From Eledone cirrhosa (Eukaryota): a stretch of 64,000 bases of DNA. The notes under the pieces are model-generated. The model saw nothing but the letters and a program-made list of their open reading frames with translations. It had not been told where the DNA came from and ran no database searches. This document shows, piece by piece, positions 47-58,839 of the stretch (within the stretch, counting starts at the first letter, position 1; each line of letters opens with the position of its first letter). Where the stretch lies: positions 64,356,001 to 64,420,000 of the forward strand of contig OZ024747.1 in assembly GCA_964016885.1 (NCBI GenBank), in the 5' to 3' direction. Position numbers and translations under genes: made by a program.

Positions 47-302
47 AAACAACATAAATTACAAATATTTACCAAACACGTATTCAAATATATCGCTTAA
101 TCCTCCATATGGACTACAAATAGAATCTCTGATAGCGAGAATATTTGTACTCCATTTGGAGGATTACACCGGATATTTGGACATGTATTTGGTAAATATT
201 TATGTTGTTTCATAAATTCTGAAGAGATAAGCAGAAGTTTGAATATTCCTTTTGTATTGCACGAATCGTTCGTTAATTAATTTAATGTAATTTACACATA
301 AC
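47..302 (+). mobile_element. Diverged fold-back island (about 75-bp arms, 47-210) followed by a hammerhead relic and a short tail ending at (TA)n; probable PLE terminus remnant
   Basis: TAATCCTCCATATGGACTACAAATA pairs with TATTTGTACTCCATTTGGAGGATTA and AAACAACATAAAT with ATTTATGTTGTTT. Downstream: AATT-CTGAAGA(219-225)...GAAT-CGTTCG-TT-AATT. (TA)n starts at 303. Confidence 0.5.
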
Positions 303-324
303 TATATATATATATATATATATA

Positions 325-410
325 TATTAAAATAACAGATTCAAGTTTAAGCAAAGAATCGCTGCTTTCGCCCCTAACAGGATCTTCTGAAACTAAAAAA
401 ATTAATCTGG
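325..410. repeat. Dispersed repeat terminus abutting (TA)n; second copy at about 14837-14920
   Basis: TATTAAAATAACAGATT(C/A)AAGTTTAAGCAAAGAAT...GGATCTT(C/A)TGAAACTAAAAAA occurs at both sites, each directly after a (TA)n tract. Confidence 0.7.
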
Positions 411-2286
411 TGCCCTAATACTCAGTTTAATGACTAAAATTAATGAAAAATATAGAATGACTGTACTAACAATACTAAAGTACGTGTAACGAAGGAGAAA
501 TAGAAAAGAAAATAGAACACTCATTAAAAATATGAGGACGGATCTTTAAAAATCTGCTTGGAAATATGGGAAGGAGAAGAATTGAATTGAATCAAGGAAA
601 CAAAAAGAATTCTATCAACACGTTTAATAAAAAAAAAATTGTCAATTAATATTATTGTGATAAATATGTGAGCAAATAACATCACTGATAAAAATGGTTC
701 ATTATATTCTAGAGACATATTGTCGCTGAAATATCAAGTACTGTGATTGGCTGGTAAGAAAGACAAGAAAAATAATATTACAACTTGGGTTCATTCCTTC
801 AAGAGATCTTGAAAAATATAACGAGTTGCATGAATTATTAGAAAGAAAAATAGTAAATTAAGATAAAGTTGTTTGAGTGCTTTAACAGACAGAAAGAACA
901 TTTTGAAATGAGAGGAAAGAGAGTGAAAGTAAATAGATATATATCTACATTAAATAAAATCGTGTAATAAGAGAGAATATAATTGATAACTTCACTCTCG
1001 ACTCCAAAATTTCCATAAATGACAGAAGCGTTTAATTATTATTTTTTTTACTCGTGTCTTGCGTGCAGCGTTTCTCATAAAATATTCTATGTGCTCCCGC
1101 CACACTTTAACTAATTTATTTTCATAATGTCGCTTCATTTGTGACCATTGTTATAATAAAAAAAACGATTGTGGATATTAGTGCTGTCTGCCGCACACGT
1201 ACCGATAGCTTTTTACAGTGTTTCGCATAGAATATATTCTGTTACAGGATTGCTGAAAAAATAAATGAGGTGTGTGTGTGTGTGGGGGGGTCATTTAGCA
1301 AAGCTACGGTACTTTGTAACGTCCACACTCCGAATTAGAAAGGAAAGGTTCGTTCTGAGAGAGTGTACGTGGAGAGAAGGAGATAATTGGAATTGTAGGG
1401 AGTTGATAAATGTCAACGAAATTCCCAATATATAACTTTTGTAAACTGATTATTTCGGTAAATGCAAAGACATGAGAAAAACCGTAGACATTTTAAGATT
1501 GCTAATTCTCGTTGAAAGGGAAATAAACTGATTACTAGGCACGTATATTGATAACACCATGCCATATTTCGACTTATTATTATTCAAATAAAGTCCTGTA
1601 ACATTTCCTCACTGGGGAACACGTATTTGCGATAACTCTAAAATTTACAGCAGGATTTGGAAGTCAAATATGCATATAATATGTGGAAGTAATTTTATAT
1701 AATTAACGCCACGGTTATCCAATTAAACATAACTATGTATTCCCAAACATGTAGAAGATTCATTGCTTGAAATTTAGATATTGTGTGTGTATAATATTTT
1801 TATAGCTATTGCATTAATCTTCCAATTATAGTTGATGACAATAACGGCTAAATTTAGTGTGGTATGGGATATAAACATTCCCGCGCTTAATATCTCACCT
1901 CTGTAATACAAAGGAGTCCTACAGCAACAGGATCAGTGTTAAATGACTATGCATTAATTTAACGAGCAGCATACGGAATCGTGTTGTTATATCCAAGATA
2001 ATAATTGAGGCTTAGTAATTGAAAGCTTGTAGATTCAATGAGTCAAAGAAATATGAATCTAATTTGAAGTGAAAACATTGTTACAAGCTACGATAACATA
2101 TATCCTGGGAATGGTGACGCATTAGAGAGGAGTAAATGGATGAAGTTTGTAACGTTATACAAATGTAGGAAAATTAAAGTATTAAGCAATATTAAAGTGT
2201 TTCAGGGTAGCCCGCAAATACGAATACTGCATTTATTTATGCATGCTATTATCTATTACAAAGTTCGTCGATTGATAGTGTTATTA

Positions 2287-2478
2287 TAATTGTTTCCACT
2301 TTTGGCACAAGGCCAGCAATAACCCAGTACATTACTGCTACATTATTTTATCGACCCCGTACGGATGAAAGGCAAAGTTAACCTCGGCGGGATTTGAACT
2401 CAGAATGGCAAGGGCCGTAACTCTATACGTCAAAGCATGGCGTCCGAACCTCTACCAATACTGCCAATCCACCACCCT
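2287..2478 (-). mobile_element. tRNA-derived SINE with Nin/Deu-type central domain
   Basis: Reverse complement has B-box GAGTTCAAATCCC and GCCTTTCATCC..GGGGTCGATAAAATAA. Imperfect TSD TGTTATTATAATT (2279-2291) / TGTTAGTATAATT (2478-2490). Confidence 0.85.
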
Positions 2479-55680: not shown

Positions 55681-56198
55681 CTTATATCATCAACAAAATA
55701 TCACCTAGAGAACATCAAAATTGCTCCTGTAGAGTCAAAAGTGAATGCCCACTGCAAGGTAAATGCAACACCAAAGTCACTGTATATGCTGCTAAAGTGA
55801 CAACCATCAGCAGCAACCAACCAGCCACCAGTGAACGATAAGTGGGTATAACACAAGACAAATTCAAAACGCGTTATTACTCACATGTCGCATCCTTTCG
55901 ACATCCAGAAAAAAGATTCACAACAGCTCTGGCTAGCAGAATATGGGATTTGAAAGGCCAAGGTATCCAATATAAATTGGATTGCTCAATTTTGAACCAA
56001 TCTAAAGAATATGCAAGAGGAACAAGAAAGTGCACTCTCTGCATAAATCAAAAGTATTGGATTTTACTAAACCTTAAATCACCAAAAACCTGCCTAAATA
56101 CAAAGACAGAAATTTTCACCAGTTGCCCACACATGAAATCACACTTGCTTTCCAGCTCATATAAACTTAACTCACTTTCAGATACTTATCCTCCATAA
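55681..56198 (+). pseudogene. PLE C-terminal GIY-YIG endonuclease fragment (CxCx5C linker; Hydra-group-like); mirror copy 55136-55652 (-)
   Basis: Combined arms read NCSCRVKSECPLQGKCNTKAIVYAAKV..RYVGMTQDKFKTRYYSH..LASRIWDLK..YKLDWSIL..CTLCINE..LNTKTEIFTSCPH; each arm has different frameshifts or stops. Confidence 0.85.
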
Positions 56199-57505
56199 GC
56201 TCTTATTCTTCACTTAAATGATTCTCTTTAAAGACTACTCTTTCTGATTTACTTTCATTTTTAACCTTATTATTAATTTTATTTTTATTTTTATTTTTAC
56301 TTCACATCCACCAGTACCCCCCCCCCCCCCCTTTATTCTTCGATTCACTTACCTAATATCTTCACTTTCCACATTTTACTTCCCTATTTTCTTTACTACC
56401 TGATTAAACAGTCACTTGCGTTTTCCACTCCAGATATTTTCTGTTATTTCGCAGCCAATTTTATATTTTTATATTTGTACTCACTTATTCATAAGGCTGC
56501 TTTACACCCTGTATCTATGTGTCTGAGCGTCTTTATGTGTGTATACGTTCTGTATATGTACACGAACGCCTCCGTATGCGGGCGTGCGTGTATATATATG
56601 TGTATGTATGTGTGTTTTTATATCTGTGTTTTTACATCTATGTTTTTTACATTCTTATTTTTATGTGTGTGCGTGTAAGCGGGTCAATGTACGTGAATGT
56701 GTTTGTGTGTATGTGTGTATATATGTATTATATGTATGGGTGTGTATGTGTGCGTGTATATATATATATATATATACAGTCGCGTATGTACGTGTGATTC
56801 GATATACATGGGGCGATATGTATGTATATGTATACGTGCATCCTGTGTATGTATGTACGCATGCATACGCTTTTGTCTGTACGTATTGCGTGTATATATA
56901 TTTTTTTTTCATAGATATATGTTTTTTATAGATATATGGTGTATGTACGCGTGTATCTTCTTTTCTTTTCTTTTCCTGTCTTTTCTTTTCTTTTCTTTTC
57001 TCTAGTGTTAATTGACTACTTTCTCTTTCATTTAAAATTTGTTCTTTCTCACATATTGTTTAATGTTTATACATATATCTAGAATTACACTTTATTTTAA
57101 CTATTACACTCCCTTCCCCCTTTATCTTCTGCATATAAGTTATCGTGTGTGTGTGTCTGTTTATACGCGTGCTTTCATACTCATATGTGTATCTAATACT
57201 TGCTTCTGGATTCGTGTCAACTAGATTATATCCGTATTTGTGGTTACATATACACAAATATACTTGCCCTCGTATATGAACTTACGCACACATTTTCACC
57301 ATACACACGCATTTGTACATACATACATATGTACATTTGTGAGTGTATATACATACATATACACACACCTAACTATATTTCCTTATATTTTTTATATATT
57401 TTTTATATATTTCATATGTCTATTGCATTACCTTTATTTATATATATATATTTTTTTTTTTTGCATTTCTTGAGGAGACTTTCCAAATATTTCACTATGT
57501 TTTAT

Positions 57506-57583
57506 ATTGCCATGTCCGACGAGCGAATGAGGACGTTTCTTTCGTATTCGTCTTATTCGGGAAACCTCTGGTAATGAGGTAAT
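57506..57583 (+). ncRNA. Type I hammerhead-like motif with variant core CCGACGA (mirror copy 53890-53967, - strand)
   Basis: Stem I ATTGCC(A/T)TGT / ATGAGGTAAT; CCGACGA; stem II CGAATGAGGACG/CGTCTTATTCG; GAAA-CC-TCT-GG-TA. Confidence 0.65.
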
Positions 57584-58839
57584 TATATTGTATTGTTTAT
57601 TATGCATTACATATATATATATACATATATATACATATACATATATATATATACAAATATATATATACATATACATATATACATATATATATATATATAT
57701 ATACATATACATATATATATATACATATACATATATATATATACATATACATATATACATATACATATATATATACATATACATATATATATATACATAT
57801 ACATATACATATATATATATACATATATATATATACATATACATATATACATATACACATATATATATATATATATACATATACATATATACATATACAT
57901 ATATATACATATATATATATATACATATATATATATACATATATATATATACATATATATATATACATATACATATACATATATATATATATATATATAT
58001 ATATATATACATATATATATACATATACATATATATATATATATATATCTATATACATATATATATACATATATATATATATATATACATATCCATGCAT
58101 ATACATATATATATATATATGTATATATATATATATATATATATATTATTATAATATATATATAATATATATATATATATATTATTATTACTATATATAT
58201 ATATATATATATATATATATATATATATATCCATGACTAGAACTCTACCAATGTAATGATTACTTTTTTTATGTGTGGTTAACCCCGACACGACTGGGCA
58301 ATCTACATATTATATATATAAATATATATATATATATATATATATATACAACACCCACATACTGTTTTAAGAACATTATCAAACACAATTTATAACGTTA
58401 TTAAAATAGCAAATGAAACTATGAAATTTTATGAAGCTAGAGATATTTATATTGATTCACGTGTTTTTTGTTGTTGTTTCTTCCTGTGCTGGTAACAAAT
58501 TATTTTTGTGGTAGCTTTGAAATATTAGATCAAACAAGTTTCAAGACCCCGTTGGCTGGAAAATAATTAGAGGTTATATGAGGTTAACAAACACATCTTT
58601 CATTGGCCAAAGAGGTTAATAATGCGAATGACATTGAATAGATTGTTTCAATACGTTTCCTTTTCTAGAGAATGTACATTCTAGAGAATTAGTCAATACT
58701 GCTTGGTTTCAAAATAGCAAATGCGGTTGTTTGATCCGCTAGAAATAATTATGGAGTTTTTTTTATAACATGTACACGTGGCCCATGATTTGGGGGAAAG
58801 TGAAATACAGTTTTATCGACACCAATATTTGACTGTTAG

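Follow-up and report, generated by a model that had tools for sequence, protein, structure and literature searches.

Truncated Penelope-like elements and an ORF-less hammerhead unit in the (TA)n tracts of an Eledone cirrhosa region

The window analysed here is a 64,000-nucleotide stretch of the Eledone cirrhosa genome (contig OZ024747.1, positions 64,356,001 to 64,420,000), in which islands of other sequence lie between tracts of (TA)n. Our main finding is that these islands are mostly the 5'-truncated 3' ends of Penelope-like elements (PLEs), retroelements with a reverse transcriptase (RT) and a GIY-YIG endonuclease, inserted into (TA)n. This is well supported, and it is largely published PLE behaviour, in a form that is extreme in this genome. 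We have high confidence that truncated PLE ends, together with one hammerhead-bearing unit that lacks an open reading frame (ORF), account for the islands, and as read from the sequence it is likely that the GIY-YIG nuclease nicks both strands of the target and that each nick primes its own cDNA. The less ordinary parts are a candidate retrozyme with PLE scars and an apparent rule of priming at two TA sites. How PLEs insert and which enzyme mobilises animal retrozymes are treated as open questions in the literature available to us (PMC8557442, PMC7229834, PMC11167929). This one genome combines young families with intact ORFs, a shared target, two priming sites in each family and an ORF-less passenger, which makes twin priming and trans-mobilisation testable.

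The assembly measures 3.0 Gb; the window has a GC content of 31% and contains 131 merged TA tracts. Fold-backs were called by self-BLAST of the window after simple-repeat masking, an unmasked repeat search being dominated by TA. A sequence-only reading of the window had described fold-backs at ten places, each with an inverted partial copy, a sense copy and a short tail before (TA)n, and inverted arms were found at all ten, in islands of about 140 bp up to 3,823 bp and with arm identities from 76% to 99.5%. The arms lie at 63-201 (76%), 3501-3701 (99.5%), 11165-11244 (92.5%), 25529-25630 (80%), 36541-36579 (87%), 36805-36877 (79%), 45223-45303/45446-45526 (90%), 49455-49574 (79%), 49730-51285 (98%) and 53873-57600 (86-95.5%). 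The tail is on the left arm at 11112, 49660 and 53788, where the described order then reads on the (-) strand, and the 45218 island terminates at its tail-less site. An eleventh fold-back, at 14835-16065, combines a long inverted arm with a sense arm that consists of the tail only. The divergence between arms (0.5-24% within the window) could date insertions as pairs of long terminal repeats (LTRs) do, if conversion is rare.

For comparison we used 39 evenly spaced 10-kb stretches of the genome (390 kb), all outside the window. In this sample 26 of 49 fold-backs had an end within 30 nt of (TA)4 or longer, versus 3.2% of 6,696 random position pairs, and in 18 of 49 the other end lay within 170 nt of a TA tract, versus 0.8% of random pairs; nine of the 49 belong to one satellite (locus L133). 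TA-anchored fold-backs occur at about 1 per 15 kb of the sample, and if our reading is true and the sample representative, the genome would hold about 200,000 fold-backs, a major self-renewing source of long hairpins.

The claim that such elements make up much of the apparently unique DNA was too broad. The 17 assigned islands comprise 9,941 bases, of which 8,945 are among the 50,686 unmasked bases of the window (17.6%), and they predominate only between 45 and 58 kb (6,328 of 8,491 unmasked bases, 75%). A good part of the remaining unmasked DNA is a short interspersed element (SINE) in about a dozen copies, a broken Helitron and unassigned sequence. Nor do the islands form a single size series, as had been supposed: their sizes are truncation lengths in unrelated families, and no graded family was found.

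Coding partners, clades and hammerheads

We refer to the families as A (3496), B (11112, 25525 and 36540), C (45218), G1 (53788), G2 (49660) and H (46368), and to the genomic loci compared by L numbers. The proposal that several PLE families share (TA)n as a target was borne out, as autonomous partners were traced for five families (A, B, G1, G2 and H): all five extend upstream into a GIY-YIG frame, and four of them into RT as well. Family A is represented by the fold-back at 3496-3795 (+), with an inverted arm at 3496-3600, a sense arm, an 86-nt tail and an intact type I hammerhead with cleavage after 3663. It gave 106 matches among 40 scored candidates, with fold junction and length varying between copies, and longer copies reach a 5'-truncated RT+GIY-YIG frame of 655 amino acids (aa; L044/L069). 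The G1 fold-back at 53788-57610 (+), 3,823 bp long with its tail on the left arm, holds broken GIY-YIG ends at 55139-55659 (-) and 55674-56198 (+), 3' untranslated regions (UTRs) of 1.3 kb, and hammerheads at 53950 (-) and 57516 (+) in which CUG is altered to CCG in both arms. Elsewhere G1 has open frames of up to 719 aa (L050, L051) and 50,748 first-look candidates, a kind of number that is not a copy number, here and below, and may include related families. The G2 fold-back at 49660-51296 (+), also with a left-arm tail, has GIY-YIG ends at 50135-50440 (-) and 50441-50881 (+) and hammerheads at 49894 (-) and 51125 (+); its family has 35,685 first-look candidates and an RT+GIY-YIG frame of 863 aa (L064). 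Longer copies of family B have a frame of 690-790 aa lying 1.3 kb upstream (786 aa in L230); in L230 the repeat and tail continue directly into the ORF, and the pseudo-LTR (pLTR) is tandem in L230 and L231. Family H, present in the window as a 3' end at 46368-46698 (+) with an intact hammerhead (cleavage 46545) and without an inverted arm (2,885 first-look candidates), is preceded in longer copies by a GIY-YIG frame ending about 1.6 kb upstream, of which the endonuclease part only was seen.

These families show the organisation of PLEs, namely a single ORF with RT followed by GIY-YIG, a partial-tandem pLTR, an inverted 5'-truncated copy, an optional tail, and a type I hammerhead in the pLTR. 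The hammerhead is intact in A, G2 and H, has a U3-A8 core in B, and is intact in L050 and altered in the window for G1. According to Craig et al. (2021, PMC8557442), the Hydra clade is defined by RWK, DKT, CxCx5C, CxxC and CxH motifs and by lack of CCHH; canonical hammerheads and (TA)n insertion are reported there for almost all Hydra families, among which Hydra-1_Obim of Octopus bimaculoides is listed, and an inverted 5'-truncated copy with a 30-40-bp tail is given as typical of PLEs. G1 and B have the full set (RWK/RWR, DKT, YRDD, CxCx5C, CxxC, CxH, no CCHH), and the truncated A and H have it over the parts covered. By their motifs and their insertion in (TA)n, A, B, G1 and H thus appear as Hydra-type PLEs, and G1 resembles Hydra-1_Obim in a comparison by eye. 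They agree with the published clade in the single ORF with C-terminal GIY-YIG, the RWK/DKT and CxCx5C motifs, the hammerhead, the (TA)n target and the inverted copy with tail, and differ from the published elements (<3 kb) in having 3' UTRs of 1.3-1.6 kb, tails of 75-100 nt, first-look candidates that reach tens of thousands and, in family B, the U3-A8 core and a fixed 138-nt form. The 863-aa G2 frame, read by eye, has DKS(G), a CX4CxxC linker and CCHH-type spacing round the GIY-YIG core. A CX2-5CxxC linker and a CCHH motif are given for Neptune and Nematis (PMC8557442), and from these motifs G2 is probably Neptune-type, not separated from Nematis; the hammerhead and the microsatellite target agree with this group, whereas the tail of 57 nt differs. 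Naiad and Chlamys were ruled out by the C-terminal endonuclease and the presence of hammerheads.

Pfam and PDB sequence searches scarcely detect these proteins: GIY-YIG was matched at E 0.005-0.02 and RVT_1 at E 0.002 for G2, with no RVT_1 match for the Hydra-type frames. Homologues at E<=1e-20 numbered 1,214. Asparagine-rich insertions between RT and endonuclease were seen in family A (L069:5093-7057) and family H (L171:5675-7159), and such insertions are reported in rotifer Penelope elements (PMC3846280).

Other assignments were tried and rejected. Families A, B, G1, G2 and H are not non-LTR retrozymes, as all extend upstream into PLE frames. The 46368 island had looked like a fixed 331-nt SINE (40 of 40 scored copies full length), and 13 of 13 other loci continue upstream to a long UTR and a GIY-YIG frame. 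Family B had looked ORF-less from a 1.64-kb copy in L102, which is ruled out by L108, L192, L194 and L220-L232.

A strict type I hammerhead descriptor gave three matches in the window, two of them the two arms of one element. A relaxed descriptor gave six, from four families (3539-, 3663+, 7879-, 46545+, 49894- and 51125+), versus a mean of 0.3 in 30 shuffles; five lie 43-234 nt ahead of a TA tract and the sixth at 665 nt. Five further motifs are damaged at the core or cleavage site (about 217, 14130, 45500, 53950 and 57516). An earlier count of about ten hammerheads of seven sequences is fair with the damaged ones included, but a complete hammerhead is absent from five of the islands then cited (11112, 25525, 36540, 36798 and 49447). 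The proposed enrichment near (TA)n also held in the 390-kb sample, with 17 relaxed matches versus 3, 4 and 4 in three shuffles, and with 11 of the 17 no more than 300 nt upstream of a TA tract versus a 16% background. An Rfam scan of the window at E<=5 was uninformative: the matches listed (150 of 525) were hairpin and microsatellite microRNA models and one viral UTR model, with no hammerhead among them. Fold z-scores of single hammerheads are weak, except at 46500 (z -2.9). The fold point is not the hammerhead cleavage site, since family A folds about 60 nt and family B about 40 nt upstream of it and G2 folds at scattered places. An isolated hammerhead-like motif at 14075-14160 (-), with TG at its cleavage site and a TA tract about 50 nt away, had no relative among the genomic loci compared.

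Two 3' ends and the priming of the arms

In every family examined the 3' ends fall preferentially at two places, the tail end and an inner site, and a fold-back usually carries one end of each kind. The tail measures 57 nt in G2, 66 in F, 75-85 in G1, 77 in B, 86 in A, about 100 in H and about 150 in J. Matches ended at the tail end and at the inner site in 40 and 35 of 80 cases for A, 63 and 34 of 130 for B, 13 and 10 of 33 for G1, 19 and 26 of 55 for G2, and 17 and 3 of 21 for H, and nearly all of these ends are followed by TA. One end of each kind was found in 26 of 33 family A pairs, and two tails in 4. In tandem copies the tail is followed without a break by the 5' UTR and ORF; the ends fall at a TA(T) of the parent, as seen in B (three read-through copies), G1 (L052), G2 (L068, AATAT), C (both sites) and F.

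Divergence between the two arms of an insertion is lower than between arms taken from separate insertions (3.0 versus 5.9% in A, 3.8 versus 11.0% in B, 6.7 versus 9.1% in G2), and minority variants are common to both arms in 49 of 62 cases in A, 42 of 52 in B and 21 of 32 in G2. Of 48 pairs that are tightly joined, 15 have a tail-less arm that extends beyond the tailed one on the 5' side by more than 6 nt, and 4 show the reverse. Junctions vary between copies. Because there are two fixed ends, one per arm, because variants are shared by the arms, and because the tail-less arm is often the longer one 5', we infer that both strands are primed. In a TA tract the GIY-YIG nuclease would nick the two strands, each of which would then pair with a UA site on element RNA; this RNA would come from one source locus for both. 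The inner UA site would prime one arm and the outer UA site the other, with the gap between them appearing as the tail; both cDNAs would stop early and have their ends joined, giving arms that point outward. Such an insertion would leave TA on either side, where later elements could land again and nest.

A similar scheme is described for the Anolis Poseidon element PAc, in which both target strands are cut and extended, two RT start sites bound the tail, and a dimer is predicted (Frangieh et al. 2024, PMC11167929). Our families are like PAc in the two start sites round the tail and in the tail that continues into the ORF side of the tandem. They are unlike it in that the start sites mostly lie at a TA of the element, which corresponds to the (TA)n target, whereas PAc, tested in vitro, had start sites without homology to the cut DNA, and this is one of several points that weigh against our interpretation. 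In A, H and J we found no parent sequence reading through the outer end. Singleton variants are common to both arms in only 10 of 17 cases (A), 2 of 10 (B) and 9 of 18 (G2), 21 of 45 overall, and the sharing of variants could come from later gene conversion; old copies at 76-80% arm identity indicate, however, that arms are not continually homogenised. Loci retrieved by a family's own query are biased towards the fold-back shape. The clade calls of all families are made from motifs, not from a tree, and for families 47, D, F, I and J, which occur in many copies and have ends built in this way, no ORF partner was traced.

Equal reach of the two arms, found in 29 of the 48 pairs, is equally well explained if the inverted arm of the same elements arose by self-priming (snap-back) of one cDNA or antisense template, and not from two primed strands. 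Snap-back has been proposed for rotifer Penelope from junction palindromes (Arkhipova et al. 2013, PMC3846280), and it agrees with the sharing of variants by the arms. It does not account for the 15 of 48 pairs, or for the 45218 and 14835 islands, in which the tail-less arm extends 5' of the tailed arm and so is not copyable from the shorter one, nor for both outer ends lying at fixed sites beside TA. We consider snap-back unlikely as the general explanation, and it may have produced the equal-arm copies.

Family C, a candidate retrozyme

The fold-back at 45218-45850 (+), with an inverted arm at 45218-45446 and a sense arm at 45451-45850, belongs to family C (2,809 first-look candidates), an ORF-less unit of 650-710 nt found in head-to-tail dimers whose 3' end continues into its own 5' end. 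Its longest ATG frame is 33 aa, its GC content 34% and its circular fold z about -4. Each monomer has one type I hammerhead, with a palindromic stem III; cores are intact in 21 of 22, and in the window copy (hammerhead 45494-45570) GAAA is altered to GGAA. Tandem hammerheads are 681 and 711 nt apart from cleavage to cleavage, or 881 nt with a nested B copy, and the arrays examined hold two cores at most. An exact 23-mer core pattern had 106 matches in the genome, and among the 100 matches listed at least four pairs on the same strand are spaced by 652-690 nt. Subfamilies are 20-30% diverged with their circular order unchanged. Copies begin all round the circle, cross the unit junction and are dispersed over many contigs with different flanks. 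Continuity with an ORF was found at 0 of 25 distinct places (two share flanks), two of which have an unrelated PLE frame upstream, past a TA tract. On these features family C fits the sequence definition of a non-LTR retrozyme, and an RNA circle and self-cleavage are predicted.

Family C also has the insertion marks of the PLEs, as its copies lie within TA and have inverted arms and two fixed ends about 110-125 nt apart. Both ends are at TATAT; 11 and 11 copies are then followed by TA, and 15 and 9 read on. The unit carries its own expandable TA tract, that is, its own landing pad. At L189:4528-5312 a family C dimer is interrupted at its internal TA tract by a family B fold-back.

Because family C shares the PLE insertion signature, it is likely moved by those PLEs, and one of their enzymes would copy it in trans from circular or multimeric RNA. 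The fuller proposal, that a Penelope enzyme writes this 670-nt retrozyme into (TA)n in trans by twin priming at two UA sites, as for the coding Hydra and Neptune elements, is a tentative one, which we find plausible without leaning towards it. If true, it would be direct evidence for a partnership of PLEs and retrozymes and for two-strand priming. Against mobilisation in trans, a partner enzyme for family C was not found, and the roughly 25 places covered out of the 2,809 first-look candidates are compatible with a rare ORF-bearing parent. PLEs have been proposed as the mobiliser of retrozymes from shared ribozymes, co-occurrence and phylogeny (PMC7229834; bioRxiv 10.64898/2026.07.22.740005), and to this link family C adds an insertion signature. 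It resembles the non-LTR retrozymes of animals (Cervera and de la Pena 2020, PMC7229834; Li et al. 2026, bioRxiv 10.64898/2026.07.22.740005) in lacking an ORF, in its low GC content and in its head-to-tail monomers, each with a single type I hammerhead, and differs from them in its monomers to dimers dispersed in (TA)n, its PLE-type inverted arms, its two-site tails and its internal TA tract. The available text of PMC7229834 does not mention the inverted-arm and microsatellite signature for retrozymes, nor does that of bioRxiv 10.64898/2026.07.22.740005 mention a tail. A description of a cephalopod retrozyme was not found in the literature searched, which covered few subscription papers and no bioRxiv supplements; a 2026 octopus repeat annotation counts Penelope families, with hammerheads unmentioned in its available text (PMC13282606).

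Perhaps family C is instead a PLE terminal repeat whose autonomous element has gone unseen, multiplied in place as a satellite and not independently mobile. Local seeding of tandem repeats by PLE ends has been described (bioRxiv 10.64898/2026.07.22.740005), and the 25 places covered leave room for such a parent. The dispersal over contigs and flanks, the starts all round the circle, the crossing of the unit junction, the two fixed TA ends, the inverted arms and the limit of two cores per array seen speak against this, and we judge it improbable.

The palindromes themselves could be taken for miniature inverted-repeat transposable elements of TA-targeting DNA transposons, as they are flanked by TA and Tc1/mariner transposons target TA; instead of fixed symmetric terminal inverted repeats and a constant interior they have asymmetric arms, junctions that vary in nearly every copy, and longer copies that reach RT+GIY-YIG frames, so that we give this almost no weight. 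Near-perfect palindromes are also a known class of artefact, and an origin in long reads or assembly at TA tracts is scarcely credible here given the spread of arm identity (76-99.5%), the family-specific end sites and the publication of the same form for PLEs.

The short form of family B, other islands and neighbouring sequence

Family B is present three times in the window: as a fold-back at 11113-11255 (-) with a left-arm tail and no hammerhead remaining, as a short fold-back of another subfamily at 25528-25706 (+) with the 3' half of the hammerhead and a 77-nt tail, and as a 138-nt short form with a partial inverted arm at 36540-36703 (+; 4,021 first-look candidates). Folding of its hammerhead gives a three-way junction whose core reads UUGAGAA, and the core pattern has 4,259 exact matches in the genome; among 100 listed, 74 are U3-A8 and 26 C3-A8. 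The U3-A8 core is not novel, having been reported in Schistosoma PLEs (PMC4209133). The mismatched U3-A8 form is widespread, which suggests that cleavage may not be needed for mobility of family B, and this is consistent with the PAc study (PMC11167929). Of 72 incidental family B matches, 47 start 128-142 nt from the end, between TTA and GTCC within loop 2, and the same fixed start is found in copies without a fold-back. This start site is similar to an initiator motif, and therefore the 138-nt form is likely a short pLTR transcript, initiated inside the terminal repeat, that would act as a built-in SINE. The suggestion that the small islands are in general non-coding and retrozyme-like was wrong: family C fits a retrozyme and family B has this discrete 138-nt form, but four of the small islands followed (3496, family B, 46368 and 49449) are truncated ends of protein-coding families or their close kin.

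Several islands belong to families outside those with traced partners. At 44-302 (+) lies an old fold-back of the PLE-like family 47, with 76% arm identity and a decayed hammerhead at about 217-290; it gave 52 matches at 70-90% identity, and its relatives retain a CTGANGA...GAAACGTT core. Family D is represented by a tail-less 3' end at 328-410 (-; 36 matches across 24 loci), by the fold-back at 14835-16065 (+), whose inverted arm starts at 14835 and whose tail-only sense arm is at 16002-16065, and by a tail fragment at 37052-37160 (-). At 14925-15300 (-) the core halves CTGAGAA and GAAA-TATT-TA of family D are separated by about 350 nt that include 143-nt tandem repeats, possibly a giant loop II variant of the hammerhead. 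The family I 3' end at 7793-7915 (-) has an intact hammerhead (cleavage 7879), and its relatives are fold-backs at TA (40 matches in 21 loci). The family J fold-back at 36802-37030 (+), with a tail of about 150 nt and 2,107 first-look candidates, has longer relatives with an intact hammerhead just upstream. A tail-less 3' end of family F at 48755-48903 (+) holds the 3' half of a hammerhead, and its relatives are fold-backs with a 66-nt tail. The old fold-back at 49449-49646 (+; 79%), also with the 3' half of a hammerhead, is of a G1-related family (77% over the tail region), and an older G2-related 3' end with tail lies at 51311-51660 (-).

A SINE-like repeat of 180-220 nt occurs in about a dozen window copies in both orientations (2279-2496, 5593-5807, 6093-6287, 10032-10169, 18292-18531, 23874-24055, 30192-30583, 38637-38861, 41983-42482, 51686-51802 and 58837-59193) and was matched in up to 70 of the genomic loci examined. 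A second SINE-like family at 47654-47883, whose end abuts TA tracts, was matched in 26 loci examined. The element at 52957-53560 (-), 604 nt long, high-copy and bounded by TA, has a terminal C2H2-like coding stretch (by eye) and 48 matches in 36 loci, some of them in tail-to-tail pairs with a TA tract in the middle; it looks like a shortened long interspersed element rather than a PLE. At 51793-52119 inverted arms (95.5%) surround a central (TA)30 in a diverged repeat family that was left out of the island count. The broken Helitron at 31969-34570 (-) retains segments matching Helitron_like_N (E 2e-42) and Pif1 2B (E 1e-9), which lie in shifted frames. Degenerate (TA)n/(TATACA)n sequence forms very long fields at 42957-48100, 52220-52941, 57611-58348 and 60613-61573, and a short tandem array at 6318-6410 consists of five copies of an 18-nt unit.

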